The notes under the pieces are model-generated. The model was not told where the DNA came from. It was given only the letters and a program-made list of their open reading frames with translations, and made no database searches. Positions 11,983 through 54,463 of a stretch of 64,000 nucleotides of DNA are shown here, in pieces; the first letter of the stretch is position 1; every line of letters starts with the position of its first letter. Origin of the DNA: a virus; the IMG/VR virus record IMGVR_UViG_3300024581_002302, positions 22,131-86,130 of that record; one strand, 5' to 3'. A program made the translations under genes and the position numbers.

Positions 11983-12040
11983 CCCGGGGCCCCGTTGCCT
12001 GCCCTGGGTCTGACTGCACCCGACAGTTGCCGGGTCAACG
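11983..12040 (-). ncRNA. Glutamine-II (Downstream-peptide) riboswitch
   Basis: CGUUG/CAACG P1, CCCGGC-AACU-GUCGGG P2, GUGCAG..ACCCAG..GGG..CCGGG pattern; ends 18 nt before the DUF4278 ATG. Confidence 0.75.
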
Positions 12041-12161
12041 TAACTCAGTGTACCGGGGCCTGTAGTGGTTGTTACAGGCTGAACAATATCCCTCGGGTGG
12101 GGGAGTTCGGAGTCGAACAGGTGCTCGTACCTTGTGCTGAAGTTGACACCACGACCACCTC

Positions 12162-23964: not shown

Positions 23965-24306
23965 ATGTCGAAGCCGGTGATGGTAGCGAGCGTCGGTCCG
24001 TACCACTACGTGTGGAAACCAGGCACAGACAAGGATGTCGACGGATTTCTGATCCACGACGTCTCCTTGAAGGCCTTCATGGACGCTGGCTATCTGGTGA
24101 ACGATCCAGCCGACGACTACGGCGAGATCGAGAACTCCAATCCCACGAAGTACTTCGTCGACATTTACGGCAACGTCCCTCCCGTTCCTGCCGACCTTCC
24201 GTCGTTCTTCGCAAGAAGAGCGGGCACCACGAACGACGACATGCCCGTCGAAGACCCTCGGGTCGAACCCTTCGCCGATGCAGGCGGACTCGGCCCCCTC
24301 GGCTGA
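23965..24306 (+). CDS. Hypothetical structural protein
   Basis: Motif upstream; tail context. Confidence 0.6.
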   Translation: MSKPVMVASVGPYHYVWKPGTDKDVDGFLIHDVSLKAFMDAGYLVNDPADDYGEIENSNPTKYFVDIYGNVPPVPADLPSFFARRAGTTNDDMPVEDPRVEPFADAGGLGPLG

Positions 24307-24335
24307 TTTTTCAAACCCACACCCTCTTCTTGATC

Positions 24336-32287: not shown

Positions 32288-35200
32288 GTGGCAGGCCTCG
32301 GTGAAGTCAAAATTGACGTAGGCCTAAATACAGCGCCTGCCGAGGCGCAGCTGACGTCGTTCTTCGGGAAGATCGGCAACCAGCAGGTGAAGGACCCTCT
32401 GAAGGGTCTGGACAAGTCATTCGGCAAGACAGCAGAGCAAGCGAAGAAGCTCGGCTTCGAGTGGGATTCCACCACCAAGAAATTCAAGAGCGACCAGGGG
32501 TTCACCCAGACGGTCGACCAGATGAACAAGACCCTCAAGAACCTTGGGGGCACAACAAAGAAGAGCGCGCAGGACTTCGACAACCTGGCGAAACGGGTCA
32601 AGGGATCCGCCGACCAGTGGAAGTTCCTCACCGGAGGAGCACAGCAGCTTCAGCAACAGCTCAGCGGTGTCTCCAGCAGCGCACAGAAGACCTCGAAGGA
32701 TCTCCAGGGTCTGGGCAAGGGTGACAGCCTGAAGACGGTCAGCGGCTCCTCGAAGACTGCAGCGACGAACATCAAGCTGCTCGGGACGTCTGTCCAGACA
32801 ACGAACAACCAGCTGAAGGGACTCGGCGGCGGCGCGAAGCAGGGCCTCGATGGAATCGGTGCGTCAGCCAAGACCGCAGGGACCAGCATCAACGGCCTGT
32901 CGAAGGGTGCACAGACCCTCGGCTCTGCCTTCGTCAGCCTGGGCAAGCAGAAGCCCCTCGTCCCGATTGCGACCAGCCTGAAGACCCTCTCGACGCAGGT
33001 CCCAGGTGTTGCTCAGAAATTCACCACCCTCGGACAGTCCGTCGCGAAGGCAGGCCAGGGAACCCAGTTCCGCACACTCGGCCAGCAGCTGAACTCCCTC
33101 GTCGCTCCGGCGCAGAACGCAGCCAAGGGTGTCGACGGACTCGAGAAGGAATTCAAGGAAGCCGGCCAGCAGGGCCAGACCTTCTCCGGTCAGATCCAGC
33201 AGGGCTTCCAGCAGATCCTCCAGGGCATCCCGACAGGCATCGGAATCGCCATCGGTCAGCAGCTGCTCGCACCACTGCAGCAGGTGACGCAGATCATCCC
33301 GGCAGCTGTCGCTGAATTCAGGGCGCTCGAGGAATCGATCTCCCTGACGGTGGCCATCATCAACGGATCAGCGGCTGAGTTCAGCGCACTCTCTGAGTCG
33401 ATCCTGAAGGTCTCCTCGAACTCCGCAGCAACGGCCCAGGAGGTCGGCGGTGTGGCTCAGTCCCTTGCACGTGCGGGCTTCTCCCTCCAGGAGATCGACG
33501 CGGCTCTGGCTGGCGTGGTCAACGGCGCAGAAGCAACCGGCACCAGCTACGAGGCGATGGGTCAGATCGTGGTGAACGCTCTGGGCGCCTATGGCCTGGC
33601 AGCAGAAGAAGCGGGCACGGTCTCCGACTCCCTGACCGTTGCGGCCAACAACTCGAACCAGTCCGTCACCGACCTGGGCGAGGCCCTGAAGTACGTCGGC
33701 CCGATCGCCGCGGCAACTGGCCAGGACTTGAACGACACAGCCCTCGCGCTGCAGCTGCTCGCAGACTCAGGCATCAGAGGCTCACAGGCTGGAACCAGCT
33801 TCCGGACAATCCTCACGAACCTGCAGATCGCCGCCTCCGGTGCGGGTGAGGAATTCATGGGTCTGTCCCGTGGATCAGCTCGTCTCGAGAAGGCTCTGAA
33901 GCTGATCGGCGCCAACATGACCGACGCGAACGGTGAGCTGCTCACCGGTGCGGATCTGATCAAGGAGCTGCAGCGCTCGATGGAAGGCCTCTCTAACGGC
34001 GAGAAGGCTCTGGTCTCGAAGGCCCTGGCCGGCTCTGAAGGTCTGCCTGCACTGAACACCCTGATCTCCGCCAGTGGCGAAAAGGTCGACGAACTGGCAG
34101 ACAAGCTGGAGAACAGCGCAGGCGCTGCAGCTGATGCAACCGCCAAGGCCCTGTCCGGACTGTCTGGTTCGTTCAAGCTGCTGCAGTCGAACATCTCCGC
34201 GTTCCTGGTTCAGATCGGCGGTGTGATCGCGACCGTCCTGAAGCCCCTGGTGGACCTCGTCACCGCGGTGATCTCAGGGTTCAACAACCTGCCCGGACCG
34301 ATCAAGAACGTGATCACCGTCCTCGCACTGCTAGCGGCAGGCATTGCCGCCGTGAACGTGGCGATGGTGGCCCTGCAGGCTGCAACCACGAGCGCATTCG
34401 GTCAGAAGGTGACCGCAGCGGTGGCGCAGTTCGCGACCACGATCACCCAGGCCAACATCTCCGGAGCGATCTCTGGCTGGATCGGATCGATCGGGACGCT
34501 GGCCAGCACCTTGAACAAGAACATGATCAAGGGCCTCGGCCTTGCAACTGAGGCGATCCTGAAGTTCAGGAAGCAGCTGGTCGATGTCGCCTCGAAGGGC
34601 TTCTCGACATTCATGTCCGCGATCCAAGGAATCTCCTTCAAGGACTTCACCTCCGGGGTGAAGCAGGCCGCGATCGCAATCAAGACGAAGATGGTCGCCG
34701 CCATGGCCACAGGCAAGGGTGCAGCCGCTGGTCTTGCTGCTGCGTTCGGCCCGCTCGTCGCTTCGATCGGCGCGTTCCTTGTTGCCGCCGCACCATTCAT
34801 CGCGATCGCTGGAGCTATCGCCGGAGCGATCATCCTGATCAAGCGGAACGTCGACTCCTACAACGCCGTCGCGAAACCTCTGAAGAAGTCGACCGAAACG
34901 CTCACGAAGTCCATGAAGGACACCGCCGAAGGTGCCAAGGACGCCGGCGAAGGCTTTAAGAGCTGGGGCGATCGGATCTTCGGGATTCTTGGCCCCTTCG
35001 ACAAGTTCTTCTCGATGCTGATCCCCGGCTACAAGCTGGTGAAGGACTTCCTGAACATCCTCGGCAACGTCGAGAACTGGGCCAGGAACCAGAGCGCGAT
35101 CCTGGCTGCCAACAACGCCCAGGCCGAGTTCCAGCGCGAACTCGACAAGTCGAACGCGAAGATCGAGGCGAACCGTCAGGCCTTGGCCAGCGGGACGCTG

Positions 35201-38182
35201 TCACAGGCAGAAGCGAACCGAGCCCTCGCAGAGAACGGGAAGTTGATCCGCGCCCAGCAGGAAGCGATGGATCAGCGCATCGGTGCCCTCGACCAGCAGA
35301 TCAAGAAGCTGAAAGAAGACGAGGCCGCCAACAAGGACACCATCCAGACCCTCGAGCGACTGAAGGGCGAGTACATCGCACAGAAGGCTGTCATCGATGC
35401 GAACGCTGCTGCTCTGAAGGAGGAGCGCATCGCGTACGACGAACAGAACCAAACGATCTCGGACTACATCGGCCGCCTGAATGACGCCAAGGAAGCCCGG
35501 GGTCAGATCGAAGCACAGAACGTCGCGAACTCATACCAGAACGAACTGGACGCCCTGAAGGCTGTCACCGATGGATTGATCACAAAGGAGGAAGCCCAGG
35601 CACGGGTCGCCACCGTCACGAAGGAGAGCATCGACAAGCAGATCGAAGCCGAGCAGGACTTGATGGAGGCGAACGAGGCCGCCTACTCCCGGATGCTGAT
35701 CACCCAGGAGGAGTACGACAAGGTGAAGGCCCAGAGCACCGAGAAGATCAAGGAGCTGCTGCGCGAGCAGGCTGTCGCCGAGAACGAGCTGAGCGAAGCA
35801 ACCACCGCTGCGATCAACCGTCGACTCTCCGACATGGAGAAGGAGATCACCCAGATCGAAGCGAACGCCGGCAGAGCCTCGTCTGCTCTCCAGGGGATCT
35901 TCACCATTCAGGGTTCAGCCATCGGTGCGTTCAAGAACCTCGCCCAGCAGGTCACCACCCTCGAGATCACCCGGGCCGACAACGTGCAGCAGAAGCGCCT
36001 CGAAAACATCGACAAGGAGGAGAAGGCACGCCTGAAGATGATCGAGAAGTCATCCCTCTCAGACGAGCAGAAGGACCGAGCCAAGGAACGAGCCCAGCAG
36101 GACTTCCAGAAGCAGCGGGACTCGGCCGAGCGTGAGTTCGAGGCGAAGCGGAAGGCCGCACTGTCTGAACAGATCGCCCTCGAGGCGCAGATGAACGCGG
36201 CGAACTACGTCGCCAAGAACGCGGAGCTGCAGCTCTGGTACACCCAGCAACAGATCCAGCTGCAGATCCAGGCCACCCAGGCCGAGATCAACAAGCAGAG
36301 AGCCATCGCCGAGGGTGACGACAAGGCTGTCGCCGCATACAACAAGCAGCTCGAGCTGATCAACCTCCAGCAGCAACAGCTGCCCAAGGTGCTGCAGATG
36401 AAGCAAGAGATCCTGCGAGCAGAAGAGGATGCAGAAGGCGCTGCTCTGGCGAACAAGGCCGCGGCGGAAGGACTGAGCGAATCTCTGGCCCGCTACGCCG
36501 TCCCGACGCTGGACGAGGTGAAGAGCCGCTTCGCGTCCATCTCAGCAATCGGCGACGACCTGGCCGGTGCGTGGGATGGATTCCAGACATCGGCCGAGGA
36601 GATCCCGAGCGATGTCGAGGGTGTCGTCCAGAAGGTGAAGACCAACATCGACAGCATCAACGACGCCAGCTTCGATCGCTTGCGCCAGGCCTTCATCGAC
36701 CGCGGTTTGAATCCGGGAGTGGCCGAAGAAATGGCCCGCGGTGTTGTGGCCACCTACGAGGCAGCAGGCGCCGAAGCAGGGGACAAGGCAGCGAAGAACA
36801 TCTACGACCGGTTCGGTGAATCGGTTCCGAAGCAGCTGATCAAGGACCAACTGCTCGAGGCATTCCAGCAGGGCTCGCAGCTCTCGGCTGAGGCGGCGAA
36901 GAAGAAGTTCAACGAACTGCCTGACCTGGTGCCGAAGGAGCAAGTCGCCAAGGCAATCGGCGCAGGCTTCGGAGAAGGTGCGCAGAAGGGGATCGATGTC
37001 CTGAAGAACACACCACTGCCCGATGGAATGCTGGCCGCAATCCAGGCCGAAGAGGAATGGGAGCAAGTCGCCGAGGCCTACGTCGACTACCTGGGCGAGC
37101 CGAGCCTGCTCGACAAGGCAGGACAGGCGATCGCTGACTGGTGGAACGGAGCCGAGAAGAGTGGCGACATCCAGAAGGCGGGCGAGAGCGGCGCCAAGGA
37201 GTACGCCAGCGGAATCGAGGACAACACCGACGTGAAGGAAAGCGTCGGAACTCAGTTCGAGGAAGGCACGAAGGAGGGCGTCAGCGCAGCCCGGACCATC
37301 GTCAAGCAAGAAGCCCCGGAGATCGGGAAGGACTTCGCCGACGGCGTCTCTGGAGCCCTCAGGGACAACGCCGAAGCGATGGCCGCTGCCATCACCACCG
37401 AGGTCGAGAAGGCGAAGGGCGCGTTCCAGGAACTTGCCAACGCAGTCGACACCTCGAAGCTCGAGACAGCCATGAACAAGGCCGTCGTCGAGCCCGTCAA
37501 CAAAGCGAAGCAAGCTCTCGAGGGTCTCTCTGGTGGCGAGCAAGCGTCCCAGAGCTTCAGGGACATGGCCAGCGCAGCGCAGACCATCGCGCAGCAGAAC
37601 CTGAACCAGATCTACAGCTCCGTGTCTCGTGACTCCCGCAGTGCATCCACTGCCAGCCGGTCTCTGGCGTCTGCAATGCGCAGCGCTTCGTCTTCTGCTC
37701 GTTCGTACGCCTCCTCGATGGAGAGGGCAGCCAGAGCTGCAGCAGCTGCCGCCCGGTCGAAGTGGACAGGTGGCCCGGTCCAGAGCGGCCAGACCTACAC
37801 GGTCAACGAGCTGGGCAAAGAGATGTTCATGTCCAGCAGCGGCAAGCTCTCCGAGATCAATGCTCCGGCGTTCGGCTCCTGGCGCGCACCATCCAGCGGA
37901 ACCGTCATCCCTGCAGGCATGGCCCAACAGATCCGCAACCAGCGCGACGCGATCGCTGCCTCGACCTCTGCGGCTTCGATGGCTGGCGGTGGTTCTGCGA
38001 TGGCTGCGATGTCCGAGGGCCCGAGCCTGAGCGGTGCAATCGCCCGCGGTTTCAAGGGAATCGGCCCGATGGGCAACAACCAGGTCGTGAACAACGTCAA
38101 CGTCTCCAGCGATCGCCCGGTCAACGATGCCTCCCGCATCCTCACCGATCTCGCCCGGATCCGTGCCCAGCGCAGGCGCTGA
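32288..38182 (+). CDS. Tape measure protein
   Basis: 1964 aa, helical and Ala/Gly-rich; TP901-like core (AQSLARAGFS, AANNSN..V.DLGEALKYVGP). Confidence 0.95.
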   Translation: MAGLGEVKIDVGLNTAPAEAQLTSFFGKIGNQQVKDPLKGLDKSFGKTAEQAKKLGFEWDSTTKKFKSDQGFTQTVDQMNKTLKNLGGTTKKSAQDFDNLAKRVKGSADQWKFLTGGAQQLQQQLSGVSSSAQKTSKDLQGLGKGDSLKTVSGSSKTAATNIKLLGTSVQTTNNQLKGLGGGAKQGLDGIGASAKTAGTSINGLSKGAQTLGSAFVSLGKQKPLVPIATSLKTLSTQVPGVAQKFTTLGQSVAKAGQGTQFRTLGQQLNSLVAPAQNAAKGVDGLEKEFKEAGQQGQTFSGQIQQGFQQILQGIPTGIGIAIGQQLLAPLQQVTQIIPAAVAEFRALEESISLTVAIINGSAAEFSALSESILKVSSNSAATAQEVGGVAQSLARAGFSLQEIDAALAGVVNGAEATGTSYEAMGQIVVNALGAYGLAAEEAGTVSDSLTVAANNSNQSVTDLGEALKYVGPIAAATGQDLNDTALALQLLADSGIRGSQAGTSFRTILTNLQIAASGAGEEFMGLSRGSARLEKALKLIGANMTDANGELLTGADLIKELQRSMEGLSNGEKALVSKALAGSEGLPALNTLISASGEKVDELADKLENSAGAAADATAKALSGLSGSFKLLQSNISAFLVQIGGVIATVLKPLVDLVTAVISGFNNLPGPIKNVITVLALLAAGIAAVNVAMVALQAATTSAFGQKVTAAVAQFATTITQANISGAISGWIGSIGTLASTLNKNMIKGLGLATEAILKFRKQLVDVASKGFSTFMSAIQGISFKDFTSGVKQAAIAIKTKMVAAMATGKGAAAGLAAAFGPLVASIGAFLVAAAPFIAIAGAIAGAIILIKRNVDSYNAVAKPLKKSTETLTKSMKDTAEGAKDAGEGFKSWGDRIFGILGPFDKFFSMLIPGYKLVKDFLNILGNVENWARNQSAILAANNAQAEFQRELDKSNAKIEANRQALASGTLSQAEANRALAENGKLIRAQQEAMDQRIGALDQQIKKLKEDEAANKDTIQTLERLKGEYIAQKAVIDANAAALKEERIAYDEQNQTISDYIGRLNDAKEARGQIEAQNVANSYQNELDALKAVTDGLITKEEAQARVATVTKESIDKQIEAEQDLMEANEAAYSRMLITQEEYDKVKAQSTEKIKELLREQAVAENELSEATTAAINRRLSDMEKEITQIEANAGRASSALQGIFTIQGSAIGAFKNLAQQVTTLEITRADNVQQKRLENIDKEEKARLKMIEKSSLSDEQKDRAKERAQQDFQKQRDSAEREFEAKRKAALSEQIALEAQMNAANYVAKNAELQLWYTQQQIQLQIQATQAEINKQRAIAEGDDKAVAAYNKQLELINLQQQQLPKVLQMKQEILRAEEDAEGAALANKAAAEGLSESLARYAVPTLDEVKSRFASISAIGDDLAGAWDGFQTSAEEIPSDVEGVVQKVKTNIDSINDASFDRLRQAFIDRGLNPGVAEEMARGVVATYEAAGAEAGDKAAKNIYDRFGESVPKQLIKDQLLEAFQQGSQLSAEAAKKKFNELPDLVPKEQVAKAIGAGFGEGAQKGIDVLKNTPLPDGMLAAIQAEEEWEQVAEAYVDYLGEPSLLDKAGQAIADWWNGAEKSGDIQKAGESGAKEYASGIEDNTDVKESVGTQFEEGTKEGVSAARTIVKQEAPEIGKDFADGVSGALRDNAEAMAAAITTEVEKAKGAFQELANAVDTSKLETAMNKAVVEPVNKAKQALEGLSGGEQASQSFRDMASAAQTIAQQNLNQIYSSVSRDSRSASTASRSLASAMRSASSSARSYASSMERAARAAAAAARSKWTGGPVQSGQTYTVNELGKEMFMSSSGKLSEINAPAFGSWRAPSSGTVIPAGMAQQIRNQRDAIAASTSAASMAGGGSAMAAMSEGPSLSGAIARGFKGIGPMGNNQVVNNVNVSSDRPVNDASRILTDLARIRAQRRR

Positions 38183-43265: not shown

Positions 43266-43604
43266 ATGGCTGTTTTTTACATCGACTCGGTCGCCCAGGA
43301 CACCCTGACGATGGTCAAGGGACAGATCTATCGGTTCGACCAGAACAACGGCTCCAACGCCGCTGCGCCCCTCTCCCTCTCTGAGACTGACGACGGCGAG
43401 AACAACGCCGGCAGCCCCTACACCGTGGGCGTCAGCTACTGGTTGAACAACCTGGAAGTGAACCGGGCCACCTACCTGTCCGGCTTCTCTGCAGCCACCA
43501 GCCGCTTCATCCAGATTCAGGTGGATGCTGGAGCCCCTGCGACTCTCTATTACTACGCCGTCGGCACGGCGGGAATGGGTGGCGCGATCACAGTCACCGC
43601 GTAA
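43266..43604 (+). CDS. Single cupredoxin-like domain lacking Cu ligands
   Basis: G.IYRFDQ..SN.AAPL...APATLYYYAVGTAGMGG. Confidence 0.65.
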   Translation: MAVFYIDSVAQDTLTMVKGQIYRFDQNNGSNAAAPLSLSETDDGENNAGSPYTVGVSYWLNNLEVNRATYLSGFSAATSRFIQIQVDAGAPATLYYYAVGTAGMGGAITVTA

Positions 43605-43614
43605 GGAGTAACAG

Positions 43615-44052
43615 ATGCCAGTTCCCTCCCAGGTATCAGCCGTCGAGCTGGCCCGGATCGCGAACAGCAGCTACGTGAACCAGGCGTTCCGCGTAGCTCT
43701 GGTCGATGCTCCCGGCTCAGACTTCGAGGCCGACGACGACATGTCGACCATCCTCGCCAACGAGGTGACAGCGGGACTCGGCGGCTATGCGCGCCAGCAG
43801 ATCGGCTTCTTGACGGCCGACATCGGTTCGTACCAAGACGGGAAGACAGAACTCGCACGTAAGGCGGCCACCTTCACCCATAACGGCAACGTGAACGAGA
43901 CCATCAGGTTCTCTCACGTGGTGGTCATCAACCCATCAGAGACCGGCCTGGTGTCGACGACAAAGCTCGCAGCGCGGGCTTCACTGTCTGACAGTCAGAG
44001 CGCGGTCTTCTACTTCGACTTCACCCTCTACGGCGTGTTCGTGGTGGAGTGA
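43615..44052 (+). CDS. Hypothetical tail protein
   Basis: Context; codon bias. Confidence 0.65.
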   Translation: MPVPSQVSAVELARIANSSYVNQAFRVALVDAPGSDFEADDDMSTILANEVTAGLGGYARQQIGFLTADIGSYQDGKTELARKAATFTHNGNVNETIRFSHVVVINPSETGLVSTTKLAARASLSDSQSAVFYFDFTLYGVFVVE

Positions 44053-44330
44053 TGGCGAGCTTCGAGGGTCCGATCGAGGAGGCGCTGATGCAGTTTCAGT
44101 CGCTTGTACGGACTGAACAGATCGAGAACGCACGAGAGGCACAGAGAGCAAGGGAGAAGCGGGTCGACGTCACTGGCGTCTGGCTCGGCTTCTCAGTGAA
44201 GGGACTCGGCCTTGTGGAGTACGACGGCAAGGTCTACGAGTGCGAGGTCCTGGGCTCCACCTGCAAGCAGAAGTACGCGAAGGTCAACCTGCGCCGTACC
44301 GACACGAAAAACTTCGCGAGCTGGAATTGA
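44052..44330 (+). CDS. Hypothetical tail protein
   Basis: TGATG coupling. Confidence 0.65.
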   Translation: MASFEGPIEEALMQFQSLVRTEQIENAREAQRAREKRVDVTGVWLGFSVKGLGLVEYDGKVYECEVLGSTCKQKYAKVNLRRTDTKNFASWN

Positions 44331-44369
44331 TCCCGGAACACTGGCCCGAGACATCAGTCAGGGCAGCCA

Positions 44370-44588
44370 GTGGCAGTCAATCGGCCAGACATCAAGAACA
44401 CCGTCGGCCATCGGTTCGCTACTGATACCGCTATCGAATTCCAGGGCAAGGATCCGCGCCTCGCTACTCCACCGAACAACGTCCCGACGTTTCCTGGCCA
44501 GCTGATCGCAGTCCGCACGAGCGCTGGTGAGTGCCAGCTGTTTGTCGGTTCTGACGACCTCACCCGCTGGTTGAAGGTGGTGAGCTGA
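44370..44588 (+). CDS. Small hypothetical tail protein
   Basis: GTG 27 nt after GGAACACT. Confidence 0.65.
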   Translation: MAVNRPDIKNTVGHRFATDTAIEFQGKDPRLATPPNNVPTFPGQLIAVRTSAGECQLFVGSDDLTRWLKVVS

Positions 44589-44589
44589 G

Positions 44590-47500
44590 ATGGCTGACCG
44601 GAGCGAACGCGACATTCTCTCGGCGCTGCTCAGGGTGCAGGCGGAGATCCGCGAGATCGAGAAGGACGAACTCGCCTATGAGTTCGAGCAGCAGAACAGA
44701 ACACAACACGCGAAGATCACGACGTCGACCTACAGGGACACCGAGTCCGACGCCGTCACCCCGACCTCTGGTGCATCCGTTGCGCCTGGCACTGACCTGG
44801 TCCTGACCCCGACAAACAACGCGCAGGACGTCGCGTGGGCTGACTTCTTCAAGAACGCAGAGACGCCTGAGTTCGACGAGCCGACCTGCGTCAATGGCAC
44901 GAACTGCCTCGGCGACAACACCTGCTTCTCCTGGTGGGATTGCGATCCCTGTGACTGGTGCGAGAACGGACAGTGCGTCGAGCGTGATCCGAACCGCACC
45001 TGCCAGGACAGCTCCGAGTGCCCCTGCCCACCGAACGACGACCAGTACTACATCTGCGAGGAGGGCCGCTGCGCCCTGACCTGCAGGCTGAACGAGGACT
45101 GCCCCGAGACCGAGGTCTGCAACCCCGAGACCTTCACCTGCCAGCCAGGCTGCGAGAGCGACGAGGAGTGCGTCCCTGGCCACCCGAACGAGGCACCAGA
45201 CGCACAGCCCGGCACCTTCTGCGTCAACTACACCTGCATCACGCCCTGCGTCCCTCCGACGTACTGCAAGGGCCCAGACGACAAGACCACCTGCGGCGAG
45301 GGTGAGTACTGCGCAGAGAAGGTCGTTCGCGCGACCACTGAGTCCTCCTACGAGGACACGCCGATCATCTACGAATGCGTCAGCGGCTGCGCCTTCACTG
45401 AACAGTGCGAGGTCGAAGTCACCGAGATCGAGAACGGCGACGGGACGATCACCAAGTACGAGCGCCAGCCCGTCTGCATCGAGAACAACTGCACGAACGC
45501 CTGCCGCAACGATGGCGACTGCATCGGTGACCTGAACGAGGTCTGCGTCTCCGGCGCGTGCCAGAGGCAGGGCGACCCATGTGTCAGCAGCGCCGACTGC
45601 GGCGATGGTGAGTACTGCACGAACGGACGCTGCGAGAGCGGCTGCGAGACGACCAGCGACTGCCTGAGGGACTGCGACAAGGTCAAGGCGTGCGTCGACC
45701 TCTGTCCTCCCGAGCCGACCTGCAGCTGCACCGACTTCTTCACCCAGGAGGAGTGCGGAACCAGTCTGACCGAACAGTGGCAGGAGTTCTGCAACCCAGA
45801 CCCCGCCTGTGTTGCTGCCTGTCCTGACGACCCGGAATGCGTCGCAGAGAACGCCCGGGGAGAGACCTGTGTGGACAACACCTGCAAGCTGCTGTGCCCC
45901 TGCCCGAACGACAACTACGCCTGCATCGATGGCGAGTGCGTCGCCAAGACGAGCGACCCCGACACGATCTGCACCACTGAGGAGATCTGCGAGGAGCTGG
46001 ACAACGGGGACATCGAGTGCGTCATCAAGGAGACCTGCGTCGATGTTCCTCCGAGCGATGACCGCTTCCAGGGCTGCGACTGCTCCCTGACCTGCAGCGG
46101 CGCTGGGCAGTGTGTCCCGTCTGTGTGCCGCTTCGACAGCGACTGCGAGGCCTGCTCCTACTGCGCCGACGGGATCTGCGTTCCTGGCTGTGACGACGAG
46201 AACCCCTGCGGCCCTGGTCAGTGCTGCCAGACCGACGGACAGTGCCATGACACCTGCAAGGTCGACGACGACTGCCCCGAGCTGGAGACCTGCCTCGAGG
46301 GCTGCTGTGGTTCACCCTGCGATCCGATCATCGACTGCGTCTCGAGCCAGAGCTGCCCCGACGGGTACTTCTGCGGCGTCGAGAACATCTGCGAGGAGGG
46401 CTGCGCCCGCGATGAGGACTGCAGCGGCTACGACAAGATCTGCGTCGACGACGGCGACGAGGTCAAGACCTGCGTCCAGCGTTGCGACACGACCGAAGAC
46501 TGCGACGACGGGTTCTACTGCTGGGAGAGCACCTTCTGCCGCCTGGATGTCCTGGCGTGCGACAGCGACAACGACTGCCCGCCGCTGATCACCGACTACG
46601 GCGACGTGTTCCAGCAGATCTGCACGAACGGATCCTGCGAGACCGGCTGCCGCAAGGACAGCGACTGCGGCACCTCGATGATCTGCTACGAGAACAGCTG
46701 CGAGTACGTCTGCTCGAACGATCTGGAGTGCGACTCCCTCGGATACGGGGACCGCTGCCAGAGCAACCCACGGGCCAAGGAGGCCGCGGCGGAGTACTGG
46801 AACCGCATTCAGTTCGTGAGCGGTGGCACTGCTGCAGAGTTCGACCGCTGGGAGTTCCTCAGCCGCAGTCAGGACACCGGCTTCTGCGTTGACGTCGATC
46901 TCGACGAGAACGGGAACGTCGTCAGAGAGCAGCGCGCCTGTGAGGGATACGAGCAGTGCGCCCTGAACGGTGAGTGCGAGCGCCTCCCCTGCATCAACGA
47001 CATCGACTGCCCGACCGGTAACTGCCTCTCCGATGGATTGTGCGGCCTGTGCACCCAGGACTCGGACTGCCTCGACGGGATGGTCTGCGACTTCGACGTG
47101 GAGTGCGACAAGAACGGCAACAACTGCGTGACCCAGAAGGAGGGCACCTGCGCCTACCCCTGCATCCCCGACGAGGACTGCGTCGTCGACAGCGACTGCC
47201 CGAAGGGTTCTTACTGCGCCGAGGACAACTATGGAGACCGCGGCAAAGCACCCCGCAAGTTCTGCGCCCAGGGCTGCCGCGAGATCGTGTACTGCGACAG
47301 CGACAACGACTGCCCCCGGGTTGAAGGACTGAACGGTGGCGAAGCCAGTGGCCGCGCCTGTGGACCATCCCTCTGCCCTGAGGGTGAGGTCTGCATCGAT
47401 GGCACCTGCCAGTTCCCGATCAACGAATGCCAGAACGGCCGCTGCTTGTACAACGGCGGCGAGTGCCTGCCTGGTACTGACTGCCGCGACGGCGCCTGCC

Positions 47501-50500
47501 TGAAGACCTGCGAGTCTTCGTCTGACTGCCCCCTCGAATCAGAGGAGTGCATGGGCGGCGTGTGCGTCCAGGTGGGCCTGGCTTGCAGCTCCGACTCTGA
47601 CTGCCCCGAGGAAGTGGGCGAGTGCTATCGCGGCCGCTGCATCGAGGACTTGCGCTGCAGCAAGAACGCCGACTGCGGTGACGATGGTCTGTGCAAGGAC
47701 GGCGTCTGCCAGGAGGGTGACTTCTGCCTGTCGAACGCTGACTGCCAGGCCAAGTGCGAGACAGCTGACGACTGCGACCGGAGGGATTCAACCGAGGACC
47801 CCTGCGTCTCGAGTGCCGACTGCAGCCAGAGCGGCGAGTTCTGCGAGGACGGCAAGTGCATGGCCGCGTACCCGACCTGCCAGGGCGGCTTCTGCTTCGG
47901 CGACAGGGACCCAGTCCGATGCAAGAGCAACCAGTGCGTCGAGGGTGAGCCCTGCAACAGCCAGGCCGACTGCGAGTTCCCGAACATCTGCTACGACGGC
48001 GCCTGCCAGTTCCTCGAGACCTGCGGACCCGGTAACGACTGCACCGACCCGCTGTACTACTGCAACAACGGCGCCTGCGTTCCTGATCTGCGCTGCTCCA
48101 CGAACGGCGACTGCCTCGAGGGCTTCTTCTGCAATCGCTCCGGCACCTGCCAAGAGAACAGCGACCAGCCACGGACCCCGAGCGCTCTCGGCTGCCCTGA
48201 TGACTGCATCCAGTCCTGCAGCTCTGAGACCTTCCGCTGCGAGCCCATCGTCTGCATCGTCGACGACGACTGCCCCTGCGGACCTTGCGGTGGCGACGGT
48301 CTCTGCACCGTTGGCTGTGAGGACGACACCGACTGCCCAGCCGGTCAGGTTTGCGGTGCCGACGGCCGCTGCGAACAGTGCAAGGCCTGCGAAGCCGACA
48401 GCGACTGCGCAGCTGATGTCCCTTGTGTTGAGGGCTGCTGTGATGGCCTGCCTTCCTGCCGCAACGACAGCGACTGCGACATCGGTGTCTGCGTGAAGGG
48501 CAAGTGCCAGGAGTGCCGCCAGGACCGCGACTGCGAGGCCAACTACGGCACCGACGACCTGGTCTGCATCGAGAACAGATGCGAGACCCCCTGCTACACC
48601 GGCCTGTCCGACGGCAGCTGCTTCGACGGCCTGAAGGCTGGCGACCTCTGCGAGAACTGCCCGGAGCAGTGCCCCGAGGGCTACGTCTGCGGAGAGAACG
48701 GCTACGTCTGCGGCACCTATGAAGTCCTGAACACGGTCACGAACCAGGCCGAGACCCGCTCGATTCCTTGCCAGGCCTGCATCCGCCCCTGCAGCTCCGA
48801 CAACATGTGCCGCCAGCGTTGCGACATTGCCGCGGACTGCATCCAGCAGGAAGCCAGCGGCAACAGCTGCACCCCCGGAGAAGAGGACAGCCCCTGCGAA
48901 GTGGGCGAGATCTGCGTCCTCGAAGGCACGAAGGGCACCTGCCAGTGGCCTGCAGCCACCTGCCCCGATGGTGTCTGCCTCGGCCCTCGCCTCGTTCAGG
49001 AGGCTCTCTGCGGACCCGTTGTTCCAGGCACCACGAACCGCTTCTGCGAGTACTTCGACGGCCGCTGCGATAGCGACATCGACTGCGATCGGGTCAGTTC
49101 TCTCGATGGTGTGCCCCGCACCTGTAAGGACAGCCAGTGCATCGAGTCGAACTACTGCGTCGGCAACAGTGACTGCGACCCCGGTCAGGTCTGCGTCGAC
49201 GGCAAGTGCCGCGAGGGCGACTGCACCAGCGACATCGACTGCGGTGTCGGTTACGTGTGCAGCGACCAGAACGCCTGCGTGTACGAGTGCGGCCCGACTG
49301 CTGAGGCCTACACCTGCGCAGCGCCCGATGGCCCCTTCGATGCCGGCAAGCCCTGCCCGCCCGGGTACAACTGCAACACCTCGACGAACCTCTGCCAGCG
49401 TCCCGGCTACGAAGGCGTCGGTCAGTTCATGCCCCGCTGCGGTCAGGGTGAGACCTGCATCGATGGCGGCTGCGCTGCCTGCTCAGGTAACGCGACCCCA
49501 GACGGTGAGGAGTTCGACGACAAGTACGACTTCGAGTGCCGCTCCGACGTCTGCTGCGCTGACAAGGACCCCTGCGACCCGCGTGGTGTGACCACGTTCA
49601 CCTGCAGCAAGGGCAAGTGCGTGGAGATCTTCCGGGCTGGCTACGCCGAGCGCTACCCCGGCGAAGTCCCCAAGCGTTGCGACGAGAAGGACCCAAGCGA
49701 TCAGACACCTGCAGATCAGCCGAGCGAGGAAGTCCAGGACATGTGCGAGAAGAAGGGCGAGTGCTGCGGCCCGACCGGCTTCTGCGTTCCTTGTGCTTGT
49801 GACGAGGAGAACCCCTGCCCAGACAAGGAAGTGATCCTGGCCAACGGCACGAGGGGCACGGTGCCCCAGTGCTGCGACCCGACCACGGGTCAGTGCATGA
49901 CCATCGACCAGCATCCGATGACGAAGTACGGCGCACCGAACAAGTGCTCCTTCGGTCCGGTCTTCTGCGAGGTCCTGGGCCCCGAGGGTGATGACGGCGA
50001 GCGCTCAGTCATCGACGTGACCTCGTACCAGAACGAGCTGTACACCGGCTGCGAGAGCTACCAGGACGCCGACGGCAACATGCAGCGCCGCTGCTACCCC
50101 GGCGGCCCGATCTCACCGAGCCAGATCGCCACGATCCTCGGCCAAGAATGCAACCCACCCGAGGAGAAGGACTGCGAGTGCTCCGTCGAGATCCCTGACT
50201 CCGACGAGTGCTTCCAGGACCTGGACTGCGAAGGCGAGCAGCGTTGCAAGTCGAAGACCTTCAAGGGCGACGCCTGCTGCCCGATCGCTGACGAGAACGG
50301 GAACGACTTCATCGTCCGCAACGTCTGCGAAGGCCAGCGCTCCGACGGAACCTGCCAGAGCGATGACGACTGCACCGACTGCGAGTACTGCGACGGATAC
50401 ATCCCCGGCACTCCGAACCGCGAAGGTCGCCCCGGCACCTGCAAGCAGGACTGCTTGAACCGCTGCCCCGACGGTGGCGAGCTGTCCCAGGCTGGCCAGC

Positions 50501-53500
50501 GCTGCAAGACCTGCGAGGAGTACTACGGCCCGTGTGTTGAGGGAATCACCCTCGAGGAGACCCCGGCCTTCATCGATCCAGAGACCGGCGAGGTGGTGGA
50601 CGCTGTCACCTCAACGACCTGTCGCATCAAGACCGAGACGAACTGCTGCGAAGGCATCACCACGCTCGAGCAAGCACGGAGACAGCGTGACGGCTGCCTG
50701 TTCAAGCGGATCGAGGTCAACAGCCAGATCGTGATCGACCAGGTCGACTACTGCGTCGACTTCGAGAAGGACATCTGCGCCGAGTGCACCGAGGACAGCC
50801 ACTGCCTGGGATCGAACTCGAAGTGCAAGAAGAACATCTGCATCACCGAGTGCGGCGACGAAGACTCCGAGGGCTACGACTACGTCGGCGACTGCACCTG
50901 CTGCACCGGCGAGGGTGAGTGCAAGGAAGCATTCGAGAGCTGGTCCGAGACCCGTGAAGGCAAGCCCGGCCCCGATGGGGTTCAGAGCTACCAGACCCGC
51001 CCCTGCGCCTGCACGAAGACCGGCATCGATTGCGGCCCATGGACTGAGCAGAACAGCTGCTACAAGTGGTTCAAGGTCTCCGACGGCTCTGGCGACGAGG
51101 CCAAGGCCGAGCGGAACCGGATCGAGGAGGAGTACAACAAGGCGCTCGACGCACAGGAGGACCTCGACGAAGCGGCCTCCGAGGGGAACCTCGAGCTGTC
51201 GACTGCTGCTGCAACCCTCACCCAGGCGAAGAAAGACCAGGAGATCATCTGCGGCACCACCGACGCCTGCGATGCGATGGTCGAGGAGTACAACCTCTCG
51301 GACCAGACGCTGAGCGACTGGGCGCTGCGCAAGCAGAACCTGAACGCCGAGCTGGTGGACATGCAGAACCGCCTCGCTGTGGCGAAGAACGCCGTGGCCC
51401 TGACCTCTGCGAAGGTCGACACCTACTGTCCAGACAGTGACCTCTGCCCGTCACTGACCCAGCAGCTGGCCAACGAGCAGGAAGTGGTTCGCCTCCTGGA
51501 AGAAGAGGAGATTCCGGCCAAGGAGGGCGAAATCGAGCAGGCCCAGATCGAGTACGACATGGCCTACGACGAGCGCGAGTACTGGGCCGACCAGGTCGAG
51601 GAGCAGTGCGGCTACAGGCCGTCCTATGGCCAGATCGAAGAAGGCATCGAATCAGAGAACCCCCTCTGCACGCAGGCCGTCGCATACGTCGAGGAGATGC
51701 AGGCCGCATACGACGCCGCATTCCAGAACGCGCAGAAGGCAGCGCTCGAAGCTGACAAGAATCTCGAACTGGTGCTCGAGCTGGAGCGTCAGCTGAACCA
51801 GACCATCTACAAGAAGCCGGAGTGGATTCAACAGCGCACCTGTGACTGCTGCGTCGACGGTGAGTGCCGCGACGACGCCGAGTGCGCTTACGGCACCTGC
51901 TACCTCTGCCAGACCGATCCCGATCCCGAGCGGGAGAAGATCTACCACGTGAAGCTGTACACGAAGGTGCAGCCCGAGCCTGTGTGCACAGGTTGCACAG
52001 ACCTGCAGGGCAACGCAGCCGACAACGCTCCGTACTGCCCCGACGACGCAACAGGCCCGAACCGGGTGAAGTTCGTCGAGGCGAATGAGTGCGTGAAGTA
52101 TCGCTGCGAGGACGGCATCGCCACGATGCAGGAACCTTGCGACGTGTACCAGAACCGCTGGTGGGATAGCTGCAAGGGCTCGATCGTCGGCTGCGTCATC
52201 CAGGGCGGCGGCGGAGTTGGAGGTGGCAACGAGCAGGTGCAGGGCAACGTCGAGACCGCCAAGTACTGGAACGGATACGCGTTCGAGTTCGACTGCCCGA
52301 ACGGCGGCGTCTGGGCGTACAACAACAGCAGCGACTCAGACGAAGCTGGTCGCGGTGGTGACTGGGTGCAGCTGACGAAGGCCGAGGAGGAGTTGACCTT
52401 CAGCAAGTGCGCCTACCCCAACCCCCTCGGACCTCTGGGCGGGAACTGGATCCCGACCTTCGTCGACCTGGTGAAGATCCACCCCTGCTGTGCCAAGGCC
52501 GAGGCGATCTATGAGTGCGACCCCGAGACCCCGAACTGCCAGACCACCTTCGAGGTCTTCTACGAGAGGGGCGACAGCAGCGACCTCCTGGATCGCCTGA
52601 AGCTGCAGGTCAAGGCCCTCGAGAACTTCCTCGAGCAGATCGTGGCAGTGCTGGAAGAACTCGAGCGCATCCGACTGTTGAAGCGTGGAGAGATCTCGGA
52701 CTACGAGGAAGCTCTGACGGAACTCCTGGACGACAGGACCCCCGAAGAGATTCAGGAAGTGATCGACCAGTACGAGGTGCTGATCGAACAGGCCGAGGCT
52801 GATGTCGTCAGGCTCGAGGGTGAGATCGAAGAAGCACAGGAGGACCTCGACGAAGCACAGGAACGCCTCGACGAGATTCTCGACGAGCAGCAGGAGCTGA
52901 TCGACGAGCGCGACGCAATCGTGGAAGAGCGCGACGCGATGCAGTTCGAGTACGACACCCTGATCATCAACGGCGACAACGCGAAGGCCGCATACGAACA
53001 GAAGAGCGGAGAGCTGACCAGGAAGGAGAAAGCCATCACCAATCAGGAGAACCTGATGGTCGAGCAGGGCTGCTCCTGCCCCTGGGTGGACGGCAGAGAC
53101 GAGGAGACGGGCAAGCTGACCGGCCAGCGCGAGCAGGACTGCCCACTGGACGGCGAAGGCAACGAGATTCCGCCCGAGTTCGGCGACACCGTGTACTGCT
53201 TCGACCAGTACACCATCCTCGAGACACTCACCAACGAGAAGGAGATTCTCAAGGGCGAGGCCGAAGAGCTGGAGCAGACCTACCAGGACTACTACAAGCA
53301 GGCCGACGACCTGAAGGGCGGCTACAGGGACGAGGAGGGGAACTACGTCGACGGCATCGATGACCTGAACGAGGACATCGATCGGATCCAGGGCAACATC
53401 AACGGCAAGAACAACACGATCTCGGTCCGCCGCAAGGCTGTGGACGACGCTCAGGCCGAGGTGGATGATCTGCGCCAGCAGCAGGTCACCGCCCAGAACG

Positions 53501-53859
53501 ACATCATCCGGTACACCGAAGAGATCAAGCGCCTCGAAGAGAAGCTCGAACTCGCCGACGAAGACAAGACCGAGCAGATCGAAGCCCTGGAGGATGCGAT
53601 CGAGAAGGCCGACGACGTTGTGGCTCAGATCGACGAACTGATCGGCCTGGTTGAAGAAGACCAGGACGCTGTCGAGCAGGCGATCCTCGAGAAGGAACTC
53701 AAGATCGAGGAACTGGAGCGCGACCTGGGAGTCCCCTCGAAGCCCGAAGCATCGAGCCGTCCTGCCGATGGCAAGACCATCGAACAGATCCAGGAGGAGA
53801 TGGCCGAGGTGGTGAAGGAAGACGAGAAGCGCGCAGGGGACACCTGGTTCCCCGAGTGA
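44590..53859 (+). CDS. Giant cysteine-rich repeat / coiled-coil protein (3089 aa)
   Basis: Dozens of C-x2-D-x-D-C-x3-5-C-x2-G-x-C units; two long heptad regions. Confidence 0.9.
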   Translation: MADRSERDILSALLRVQAEIREIEKDELAYEFEQQNRTQHAKITTSTYRDTESDAVTPTSGASVAPGTDLVLTPTNNAQDVAWADFFKNAETPEFDEPTCVNGTNCLGDNTCFSWWDCDPCDWCENGQCVERDPNRTCQDSSECPCPPNDDQYYICEEGRCALTCRLNEDCPETEVCNPETFTCQPGCESDEECVPGHPNEAPDAQPGTFCVNYTCITPCVPPTYCKGPDDKTTCGEGEYCAEKVVRATTESSYEDTPIIYECVSGCAFTEQCEVEVTEIENGDGTITKYERQPVCIENNCTNACRNDGDCIGDLNEVCVSGACQRQGDPCVSSADCGDGEYCTNGRCESGCETTSDCLRDCDKVKACVDLCPPEPTCSCTDFFTQEECGTSLTEQWQEFCNPDPACVAACPDDPECVAENARGETCVDNTCKLLCPCPNDNYACIDGECVAKTSDPDTICTTEEICEELDNGDIECVIKETCVDVPPSDDRFQGCDCSLTCSGAGQCVPSVCRFDSDCEACSYCADGICVPGCDDENPCGPGQCCQTDGQCHDTCKVDDDCPELETCLEGCCGSPCDPIIDCVSSQSCPDGYFCGVENICEEGCARDEDCSGYDKICVDDGDEVKTCVQRCDTTEDCDDGFYCWESTFCRLDVLACDSDNDCPPLITDYGDVFQQICTNGSCETGCRKDSDCGTSMICYENSCEYVCSNDLECDSLGYGDRCQSNPRAKEAAAEYWNRIQFVSGGTAAEFDRWEFLSRSQDTGFCVDVDLDENGNVVREQRACEGYEQCALNGECERLPCINDIDCPTGNCLSDGLCGLCTQDSDCLDGMVCDFDVECDKNGNNCVTQKEGTCAYPCIPDEDCVVDSDCPKGSYCAEDNYGDRGKAPRKFCAQGCREIVYCDSDNDCPRVEGLNGGEASGRACGPSLCPEGEVCIDGTCQFPINECQNGRCLYNGGECLPGTDCRDGACLKTCESSSDCPLESEECMGGVCVQVGLACSSDSDCPEEVGECYRGRCIEDLRCSKNADCGDDGLCKDGVCQEGDFCLSNADCQAKCETADDCDRRDSTEDPCVSSADCSQSGEFCEDGKCMAAYPTCQGGFCFGDRDPVRCKSNQCVEGEPCNSQADCEFPNICYDGACQFLETCGPGNDCTDPLYYCNNGACVPDLRCSTNGDCLEGFFCNRSGTCQENSDQPRTPSALGCPDDCIQSCSSETFRCEPIVCIVDDDCPCGPCGGDGLCTVGCEDDTDCPAGQVCGADGRCEQCKACEADSDCAADVPCVEGCCDGLPSCRNDSDCDIGVCVKGKCQECRQDRDCEANYGTDDLVCIENRCETPCYTGLSDGSCFDGLKAGDLCENCPEQCPEGYVCGENGYVCGTYEVLNTVTNQAETRSIPCQACIRPCSSDNMCRQRCDIAADCIQQEASGNSCTPGEEDSPCEVGEICVLEGTKGTCQWPAATCPDGVCLGPRLVQEALCGPVVPGTTNRFCEYFDGRCDSDIDCDRVSSLDGVPRTCKDSQCIESNYCVGNSDCDPGQVCVDGKCREGDCTSDIDCGVGYVCSDQNACVYECGPTAEAYTCAAPDGPFDAGKPCPPGYNCNTSTNLCQRPGYEGVGQFMPRCGQGETCIDGGCAACSGNATPDGEEFDDKYDFECRSDVCCADKDPCDPRGVTTFTCSKGKCVEIFRAGYAERYPGEVPKRCDEKDPSDQTPADQPSEEVQDMCEKKGECCGPTGFCVPCACDEENPCPDKEVILANGTRGTVPQCCDPTTGQCMTIDQHPMTKYGAPNKCSFGPVFCEVLGPEGDDGERSVIDVTSYQNELYTGCESYQDADGNMQRRCYPGGPISPSQIATILGQECNPPEEKDCECSVEIPDSDECFQDLDCEGEQRCKSKTFKGDACCPIADENGNDFIVRNVCEGQRSDGTCQSDDDCTDCEYCDGYIPGTPNREGRPGTCKQDCLNRCPDGGELSQAGQRCKTCEEYYGPCVEGITLEETPAFIDPETGEVVDAVTSTTCRIKTETNCCEGITTLEQARRQRDGCLFKRIEVNSQIVIDQVDYCVDFEKDICAECTEDSHCLGSNSKCKKNICITECGDEDSEGYDYVGDCTCCTGEGECKEAFESWSETREGKPGPDGVQSYQTRPCACTKTGIDCGPWTEQNSCYKWFKVSDGSGDEAKAERNRIEEEYNKALDAQEDLDEAASEGNLELSTAAATLTQAKKDQEIICGTTDACDAMVEEYNLSDQTLSDWALRKQNLNAELVDMQNRLAVAKNAVALTSAKVDTYCPDSDLCPSLTQQLANEQEVVRLLEEEEIPAKEGEIEQAQIEYDMAYDEREYWADQVEEQCGYRPSYGQIEEGIESENPLCTQAVAYVEEMQAAYDAAFQNAQKAALEADKNLELVLELERQLNQTIYKKPEWIQQRTCDCCVDGECRDDAECAYGTCYLCQTDPDPEREKIYHVKLYTKVQPEPVCTGCTDLQGNAADNAPYCPDDATGPNRVKFVEANECVKYRCEDGIATMQEPCDVYQNRWWDSCKGSIVGCVIQGGGGVGGGNEQVQGNVETAKYWNGYAFEFDCPNGGVWAYNNSSDSDEAGRGGDWVQLTKAEEELTFSKCAYPNPLGPLGGNWIPTFVDLVKIHPCCAKAEAIYECDPETPNCQTTFEVFYERGDSSDLLDRLKLQVKALENFLEQIVAVLEELERIRLLKRGEISDYEEALTELLDDRTPEEIQEVIDQYEVLIEQAEADVVRLEGEIEEAQEDLDEAQERLDEILDEQQELIDERDAIVEERDAMQFEYDTLIINGDNAKAAYEQKSGELTRKEKAITNQENLMVEQGCSCPWVDGRDEETGKLTGQREQDCPLDGEGNEIPPEFGDTVYCFDQYTILETLTNEKEILKGEAEELEQTYQDYYKQADDLKGGYRDEEGNYVDGIDDLNEDIDRIQGNINGKNNTISVRRKAVDDAQAEVDDLRQQQVTAQNDIIRYTEEIKRLEEKLELADEDKTEQIEALEDAIEKADDVVAQIDELIGLVEEDQDAVEQAILEKELKIEELERDLGVPSKPEASSRPADGKTIEQIQEEMAEVVKEDEKRAGDTWFPE

Positions 53860-53908
53860 TGACCTATTGGGACCAGTCGGAACACTCAGGCGCCTCTGCC
53901 CCGTTTCG

Positions 53909-54463
53909 ATGCAGACCCCTGACTGGACACACTTCCGCTCTGATGGCACAGACCCCAGCGGTCCCTGTTGCCTTCTCCCGAGCGCGTTCCCTGTGGACGA
54001 GCTTCCCCGGAACTACATCTGGACGATCGGCTACATCGGCACCTGGAAGGGCAAAGAGGACGCCGAGATCTCCGCTCAGGTTCGTTCCTACTCGAGGGAC
54101 TTCCTCGTCGAGCGTGCTCACACGTTGAAAGCGAAGAAGGAAGAAGAAAGAAAGCGGATCCAGCAGCTGGAAGTGCTGCAGGCACGCCGCAAGGAACAGA
54201 TGGACCGCCTCACCGCTGACACCATGAAGGATCAGGAAGCAATCAAACGCAAGATCGAAGCGAGCCCGCTGGCGATGGCGAAGAACCTCGTCAAGTCAGC
54301 GGCAGACCTGGCCACCGGCGGCGTCACGGACCCGAAGGAGCGGATGGACATCTGCAACTCCTGCCCGTTCAAAGGCGACGACAATCGCTGCGGCAAGTGC
54401 GGCTGCTTCTTGCCTGCGAAGACAAGGGTCAAGAAGTCGAGCTGCCCGATCAGCCGCTGGTAG
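53909..54463 (+). CDS. Protein with coiled coil and C-terminal DUF6171-like Cys cluster
   Basis: RMDICNSC...CGKCGCF..KT.....CP..RW; ATG 22 nt after GGAACACT. Confidence 0.75.
   Translation: MQTPDWTHFRSDGTDPSGPCCLLPSAFPVDELPRNYIWTIGYIGTWKGKEDAEISAQVRSYSRDFLVERAHTLKAKKEEERKRIQQLEVLQARRKEQMDRLTADTMKDQEAIKRKIEASPLAMAKNLVKSAADLATGGVTDPKERMDICNSCPFKGDDNRCGKCGCFLPAKTRVKKSSCPISRW

Follow-up and report, generated by a model that had tools for sequence, protein, structure and literature searches.

The question raised by the locus described here is how, and when, some 160 disulfide bonds could form in a protein that is confined to the cytoplasm until lysis. The locus lies in a stretch of 64,000 nucleotides of viral DNA (positions 22,131 to 86,130 of IMG/VR virus record IMGVR_UViG_3300024581_002302), which we call the window and to whose first letter positions refer unless stated otherwise. 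A single reading frame of 3089 amino acids (aa), running from 44590 to 53859 on the + strand, encodes an acidic protein extremely rich in cysteine (Cys), the orthologue of gp084 of cyanophage P-SS2. We propose, at odds somewhat better than even (a probability of roughly 0.55), that this giant protein is an extended, disulfide-knotted and polyanionic bead-chain fibre or tether at the tail tip of a P-SS2-like cyanosiphovirus, and that it becomes oxidised at a late stage of infection or once lysis has occurred.

The gene was delimited from the open reading frame (ORF) list, its translation and composition, and collinear homology. Its product has a mass of 338 kDa, an isoelectric point of 4.05 and 328 Cys, or 10.6% of residues, as against 0.58% in the 21 other main ORFs of the window, pooled. 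Its 335 Glu and 320 Asp (21.2% D+E together) bring the net charge to -417, and His occurs 7 times in the whole chain. A Kyte-Doolittle profile with a 19-residue window found no signal peptide, membrane anchor or hydrophobic segment in it, the highest mean being 0.92 for the whole protein and 0.01 for the N-terminus. An earlier note on this DNA, made from the sequence by eye, had described an acidic, extremely Cys-rich ORF of 3089 aa without a signal peptide, and both the counts and the profile bear this description out. Its succession of Cys array, coiled coil, second Cys region and longer coiled coil likewise agrees in position with the computed layout, which we give here with all coordinates on the + strand. 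Residues 1-99 (44590..44886) hold no Cys and form an N-terminal region common to all relatives, with a conserved helix-like LLRVQxEIR segment and a DVAWAD motif; we regard it as the candidate virion-attachment end. A search for an anchor domain common to this N-terminus and other proteins of the window found no similarity. The Cys-dense module array then occupies residues 100-2196 (44887..51177; 297 Cys, 14.2%). It is followed by a first coiled-coil-like region with few Cys and heptad periodicity (residues 2197-2417, 51178..51840), which is broken by three Cys pairs (2221/2227, 2280/2286 and 2340/2360). Next come a family-specific beta domain of 243 aa with 21 Cys, delimited by alignment and AlphaFold2 (residues 2418-2660, 51841..52569), and a second, long acidic coiled coil (residues 2661-3089, 52570..53856; 29.6% D+E). 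In this last segment heptad periodicity rises to 9 times background and there are 4 Cys, in a small cluster (2828, 2830, 2851 and 2870). The C-terminal peptide is conserved in relatives and ends in W-[YF]-P-E.

Among 50,697 phage records, the sole match to the giant protein was gp084 of P-SS2, a Prochlorococcus phage of 50% G+C (tblastn E 1e-88, 77% coverage). The P-SS2 protein (ORF084, YP_003084228) has 2612 aa and 282 Cys (10.8%), and aligns collinearly from the N-terminus on (BLASTP E 3e-96 and 6e-66, 29-31% identity). By sequence the two are collinear orthologues, sharing the Cys-free N-terminus, the Cys array, both coiled coils, the beta domain and the position of the gene, whereas gp084 is 477 aa shorter and lacks several of the Cys pairs and modules. 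In purified P-SS2 virions, ORF084 was detected with a mean of 43 peptides over three biological replicates and classed as an “unknown structural protein” (Sullivan et al., 2009; PMC2784084). By orthology with gp084, we infer that the protein of this window is present in virions as well; where the earlier note had allowed for a protein missing from virions, the relative at least was found in purified ones. The gp084 family is already on record, then, as an unknown structural protein, and the giant gene is a further member of it. The words “cysteine” and “disulfide” each occur 0 times in Sullivan et al. (2009; PMC2784084), in which the Cys content, the modules and the redox problem of ORF084 go undiscussed.

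The family is small and rare. Fourteen full-length relatives of 2666-3506 aa, each with 9-11% Cys, were found among 5.8 billion proteins; six of them cover 100% of the query in the best local alignment, and the N- and C-terminal ends are common. A search of IMG/VR yielded three further loci. Out of 1.84 billion representatives, a profile of the beta domain retrieved only 15 clusters, every one a member of the gp084 family or a fragment of a member. Homology within the family is collinear and includes both ends, and the position of the gene is conserved: gene order is alike in the window, in P-SS2 and in three metagenomic relatives (L004-L006), and runs from the tape measure through genes of about 138, 700 and 880 aa and four of 112, 145, 93 and 72 aa to the giant gene, followed by genes of about 186 and 1900 aa.

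The earlier note read the array as a chain of C-x2-D-x-D-C-x3-5-C-x2-G-x-C units. Taken literally, this motif has 4 strict and 30 relaxed matches. A hidden Markov model of a 21-aa module, trained on the same giant protein in which copies were then counted, finds 28 copies of at least 8 bits, against 0 in 20 composition-preserving shuffles. The canonical module has about 21 aa and four Cys spaced C-x5-C-x5-C-x4-C, with the family-wide consensus C-x2-D-x-D-C-[PG]-x-G-x2-C-x-[DN]-G-x-C, and C-x5-C is the commonest of all Cys spacings (105 of 327 gaps). The chain of units is thus real as the consensus of these modules, which span about a quarter of the Cys-dense region; the remainder of the region is Cys-rich and irregular. 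At the DNA level the module copies are 60-80% alike, and no tandem array or recent duplication of modules was detected in the giant gene, so that the modules are old and not recently amplified.

Structure prediction gives an indication of what such an array might look like. An AlphaFold2 model of residues 95-420, built with the family alignment, shows many short beta-hairpins at a mean predicted local distance difference test score (pLDDT) of 77 and a predicted template modelling score (pTM) of 0.35, values that would fit beads on a string whose mutual orientation is not fixed. Against the PDB this model gave nothing significant, the best local hints being Dkk4 and a squash knottin. In the AlphaFold DB it matches clusters of multi-module secreted Cys-rich proteins (TNFR-Cys, EB, Dickkopf_N and squash-type inhibitors) with E down to 1e-10 and low template modelling (TM) scores. 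In BFVD it finds C7F4D0_1 (E 1.6e-23, 36% identity), judged by score, identity and length to be a fragment of the P-SS2 orthologue, and otherwise EGF-like and transmembrane proteins of giant viruses. Sequence comparisons lead in the same direction. The fragment 990-1210 matches Pfam family DUF7107 (PF23416) in five stretches, at 30.7 bits against a cut-off of 24.6; six other fragments match it below the cut-off, and a Pfam scan of the whole protein does not match it at all. Weak fragment matches to DPY, Dickkopf_N and WAP were also obtained, and the nearest Atlas clusters of the Cys array are DUF7107/Dickkopf_N proteins of Myxococcota (score 0.90). A word-based search of the 5.8 billion proteins with a 361-aa fragment returned one weak DUF7107 protein, which argues against any close donor among hosts or other bacteria.

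Like the giant protein, proteins of the DUF7107, Dickkopf_N, EB and Dumpy DPY types consist of short Cys-rich beta-hairpin modules in long tandem arrays; they are secreted into oxidising compartments, in contrast to the giant protein with its lack of a signal peptide. In Drosophila Dumpy, such modules build a very long load-bearing extracellular fibre. The similarity is marginal, and the modules resemble each other in type more than in any demonstrable descent. The EGF-family Pfam models (EGF, EGF_CA) match neither the whole protein nor ten fragments of it at E up to 5. As a whole, the giant protein gave nothing significant in Pfam, no PHROG family at E up to 1 and no match in a PDB sequence search. 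No described phage fibre, spike or hub family was matched by PHROG, PDB sequence, PDB fold (two models) or BFVD. The earlier note had likened the protein to myxobacterial or eukaryotic extracellular repeats more than to any phage fibre that it recognised; the DUF7107, Atlas and AlphaFold DB matches are in accord with the first half of that remark, and the want of a characterised fibre family with the second.

The beta domain stands apart from this likeness. An AlphaFold2 model of residues 2405-2715 is beta-rich (pLDDT 78, pTM 0.61) and places residues 2663-2714 in one continuous helix, and the alignment of the domain has many invariant Cys, Gly and aromatic columns. No match to its fold was found in the PDB (Foldseek, VIA wide), the AlphaFold DB clusters or the Atlas (by shape and by features), where matches were confined to the trailing helix or to TM scores of at most 0.25; the domain is an orphan.

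A structural protein need not be an external one, and the same chain might instead form a compact mass in the tail tip or baseplate, or be carried inside the tail or head, released at infection and unfolded by reduction in the host envelope or cytoplasm. We hold this to be unlikely while giving it appreciable weight. Gene order is the sole basis for placing the protein at the tail tip, and the published account of P-SS2 makes no mention of a tip fibre. The chain is conserved to a fairly similar degree throughout, with neither end hypervariable as in many receptor-binding proteins, and separate fibre-like and lectin-like genes lie nearby. However, the net charge is hard to reconcile with packing beside DNA, and the bead-like modules suggested by the low pTM, together with some 650 aa of coiled coil, would be typical of proteins with an elongated shape. 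Negative staining could, moreover, easily miss a thin chain of some 2 nm in width. We retain the extended fibre or tether as the preferred reading, and suggest that it serves as a structural tether or scaffold rather than as a host-specific receptor-binding tip, because conservation is so even and because lectin- and fibre-like genes are provided separately.

The case for disulfides within this chain comes from the way in which its Cys are kept and lost. In a MAFFT alignment of 15 sequences, Cys columns have a mean identity to the query of 0.90, compared with 0.15-0.6 for other residues, and 258 of the 328 Cys are at least 80% conserved. Where conserved Cys are replaced, they tend to be replaced in twos. 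The members of the pairs 121/146, 498/522 and 2466/2633 are missing from exactly the same sets of sequences, even though the last two Cys are 167 residues apart, and the sets for 545/572 differ by one sequence. Further pairs replaced jointly are 1545/1557, 436/445, 801/812 and 2340/2360, the last of these, in the first coiled-coil region, in P-SS2. In three canonical modules the co-substituted pair is the first and third Cys (436/445, 801/812 and 1545/1557). The residues found in place of lost pairs are often hydrophobic (V/L, V/Y, A/L).

These losses were read on a FastTree phylogeny of 18 family members, on which several of the loss sets are not clades, sister lineages having kept both Cys. 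The pair 121/146 is lost in P0006, P0008/9 and P0011 and kept in P0007; 498/522 is missing from P0012, P0014/16 and P-SS2, while their sisters P0018 and P0013 retain it; 545/572 is lacking in P0007, P0010 and P0012/18; and 2466/2633 is lost in P0008/9 and again in P0013. This tree-aware reading was used in place of a permutation control, in which observed sets were scored as exact twins and permuted ones as groups of at least two, under different rules. That two Cys, and exactly two, have repeatedly been lost together, often in favour of a hydrophobic pair, points to disulfides rather than Cys4 metal sites.

A metal-stapled appendage, in which the Cys would act as cytoplasmic ligands for Zn, Cu or Fe, like those of Giardia VSP or metallothionein-type sites, and load the virion heavily with metal, has to be weighed against this evidence. 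Synthesis in a reducing cytoplasm without a signal peptide is what such an appendage would entail, and the sheer Cys content is suggestive of it, as are the cupredoxin domains of a neighbouring tail protein and the zinc-ribbon-like Cys cluster of the 198-aa protein encoded downstream. One block of four Cys (1005, 1012, 1017 and 1023) is lost as a unit in two relatives. Yet CxxC makes up just 19 of the 327 spacings and His is as rare as noted above, both of which argue against zinc-type sites. The losses come mainly in twos and not in fours, one of the pairs being widely separated in the chain, and the nearest module families are disulfide-rich and secreted. The cupredoxin domains give way to Laminin_G_3 in L006, and none was detected in the P-SS2 counterpart. 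The giant protein does not, in sum, show the pattern of CxxC or CxC pairs, frequent His and ligands kept or lost in fours that is expected of Cys4 zinc or metallothionein-type sites, and we consider metal stapling improbable. That the protein has no function in the virion, being a co-purifying aggregate or a polyanion released at lysis (a scavenger of cations or metals, or a decoy) whose detection in P-SS2 was carry-over, seems to us highly improbable: the virion evidence is one proteomic study of one relative and very large acidic proteins can co-sediment with particles, but the peptides recurred across three biological replicates, the gene is set between virion genes in a strictly conserved order, and the product of the neighbouring ORF085 gave 0 peptides in the same samples, so that carry-over was not general.

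For the disulfide-knotted fibre or tether we envisage the following course of events. The chain would be made in the cytoplasm, without a signal peptide, and its Cys-free N-terminus would attach to the tail tip, perhaps by way of the proteins encoded by the four small genes upstream. Some 2100 residues would form a chain of beta-hairpin modules, each about 20-25 aa long and held together by local disulfides, which in the canonical module would join the first Cys to the third and the second to the fourth. The two acidic coiled coils flanking the beta domain may provide for oligomerisation and form the distal end, and Ca2+ may be bound at the D-x-D motifs. As many as about 164 disulfides would arise, either late in infection or upon release into oxic seawater, and oxidation would yield a thin, stiff, protease-resistant and polyanionic fibre or tether. 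To obtain so many disulfides from the reducing cytoplasm of a cyanobacterium would call for a step of oxidative “curing”, either towards the end of infection or once the cell has lysed. We infer the disulfide chemistry, extended shape, virion site and timing of oxidation from the lines of evidence given above, and likewise any role in contact with the host. The earlier note had offered three options for the protein. The one by which it oxidises and stiffens at lysis is favoured by the paired Cys losses and the non-zinc spacing; the metal-stapled one is disfavoured on the same grounds; and a binding of copper, as far as it would link the protein to its cupredoxin neighbour, is not conserved among relatives.

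Several points weigh against the reading as a disulfide-bonded tip fibre. MAFFT favours the alignment of Cys with Cys, which somewhat inflates the figure for Cys conservation and on which the pairing also rests, and the permutation control for joint loss ignores relatedness. Of the first 15 family members, 11 have an even whole-chain Cys total and 4 an odd one, and Cys parity in insertions and deletions is uninformative, their borders cutting through modules. The pTM of 0.35 could equally mean that the packing of the modules was not predicted. No recognisable sulfhydryl oxidase was seen in the genome, a search with Erv1/ALR being uninformative since its controls were silent. The P-SS2 proteomics samples were reduced and alkylated and are thus silent on the redox state of the virion (PMC2784084), and the published description of P-SS2 names no long tip fibre (PMC2784084).

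A bolder proposal is that the redox state of the fibre acts as a switch, oxidative curing being followed by reduction at the host envelope, which would loosen or release the fibre and license DNA ejection. We put this forward as tentative and rather doubtful. A precedent for redox-dependent tail structures is available in cyanophage Pam3, whose fibres are joined to the baseplate by disulfides and in which dithiothreitol detaches the fibres and triggers contraction (PMC9942802). Pam3 resembles the phage considered here in being a cyanophage assembled in the cytoplasm, with functional disulfides. It differs in that its disulfides are a handful of inter-subunit bonds in ordinary fibre and wedge proteins, whereas those proposed for the giant protein are far more numerous and mostly intramodular, and there is no sequence or fold relationship between the two.

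The fibres of phages are known to be built as trimeric beta-helices, coiled coils, collagen-like rods or strings of Ig or FN3 domains. Classical examples (T4 gp34-37, lambda Stf and gpJ, T5 pb1 and pb4, collagen-like fibres, Ig- and FN3-strings) share with the giant protein their large size, modularity, coiled-coil segments and position after the tape measure gene, and differ from it in consisting of trimeric beta-helices, collagen or Ig strings in place of the proposed disulfide-knotted mini-modules. No description of a phage fibre made of some 160 disulfide-locked mini-modules was found in the searchable literature, and none was found in the phage family and viral fold libraries searched. 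If the proposal holds true, a 338-kDa fibre of disulfide-knotted mini-modules, as in extracellular matrix of the Dumpy type, would represent a further design principle for phage fibres. If the reading as a redox switch is true, this new building principle would come with a redox-gated step in marine phage infection, and if redox state or Ca2+ sets the stiffness or release of the fibre, this would matter for how phages decay and adsorb in the ocean. We note that P-SS2 on Prochlorococcus MIT9313 is a cultured member of the family, which makes experiments feasible.

The source record is 99.5 kb long, an estimated 93% complete, and carries genes for a ribonucleotide reductase, a portal, a MuF-like head protein, a major tail protein and a tape measure. 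The tape measure protein of 1964 aa (32288..38182, + strand) matches PHROG tape-measure families with E down to 2.7e-62 and PF10145 with E 1.7e-36. It is followed by genes of 682 aa and 838 aa, the four small genes, the giant gene, genes of 198 aa and 1886 aa and then fibre-like proteins, an order that upholds the assignment of the giant gene to a tail-tip module, with the tape measure upstream and fibre-like genes downstream. The four small genes (112, 145, 93 and 72 aa; 43266..44588, + strand) lie directly upstream of the giant gene and keep their size and order in all relatives examined, with the same four sizes in L004-L006. None of them matched a Pfam family. Virions of P-SS2 were found to contain the products of all four counterparts, ORFs 080-083 (PMC2784084), and we consider the four proteins candidate adaptors.

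Directly downstream of the giant gene lies a gene for about 186-198 aa (53867..54463, + strand, with a probable start Met at 53909), identified from its translation and as the orthologue of P-SS2 gp085. Its product has a C-terminal C-x2-C...C-x2-C-x-C cluster, weak matches to DUF6171 and phrog_13558, and a conserved position in relatives. No peptides of P-SS2 ORF085 were detected in virions (PMC2784084), and the protein may serve as assembly factor or chaperone to the giant protein or the 1886-aa protein. ORF085 is mis-annotated in P-SS2 as “DNA-directed RNAP”. The 1886-aa protein itself (54500-60160, + strand) is the orthologue of P-SS2 ORF086, for which 45 peptides were found in virions, and the relatives in L004 and L006 carry Laminin_G_3 domains. 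It is a better candidate for receptor binding than the giant Cys-rich protein.

The 838-aa tail protein (40706-43222, + strand) consists of a long stalk of PDQIF-type repeats with C-terminal cupredoxin domains (PF00127, E 7.7e-9; PF13473). The corresponding position is taken by a sub-threshold cupredoxin in L004, by Laminin_G_3 in L006 and by nothing recognisable in P-SS2 gp079, and from the sequences the cupredoxin domains look like a swappable distal tip or binding module. An obligate partnership of copper and thiols between this protein and the giant protein was considered and rejected, the cupredoxin domains not being conserved among relatives. The sole redox protein found in the genome is a 97-aa ORF of thioredoxin fold whose active site has an unusual CGWC motif (G000:C1:21077-21370, or L003 1471-1764), just upstream of the window and of the ribonucleotide reductase gene; it matches PF00085 at 17.4 bits, below the cut-off, and no glutaredoxin was found in the genome. 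P-SS2 has the same arrangement of thioredoxin fold and ribonucleotide reductase (ORF010 and ORF011), and the 97-aa protein is probably the electron donor of the reductase.

Elsewhere in the window, an 865-aa tail or fibre protein (24012-26609, + strand) carries an Mtd_N domain, the N-terminal domain of the major tropism determinant (PF18454, E 3.7e-8). On the - strand at 11983-12043 there is a full-length Glutamine-II riboswitch aptamer (RF01704, 43.6 bits against a gathering score of 33). Riboswitches of this class occur in marine picocyanobacteria and their phages, and its presence supports a picocyanobacterial host.

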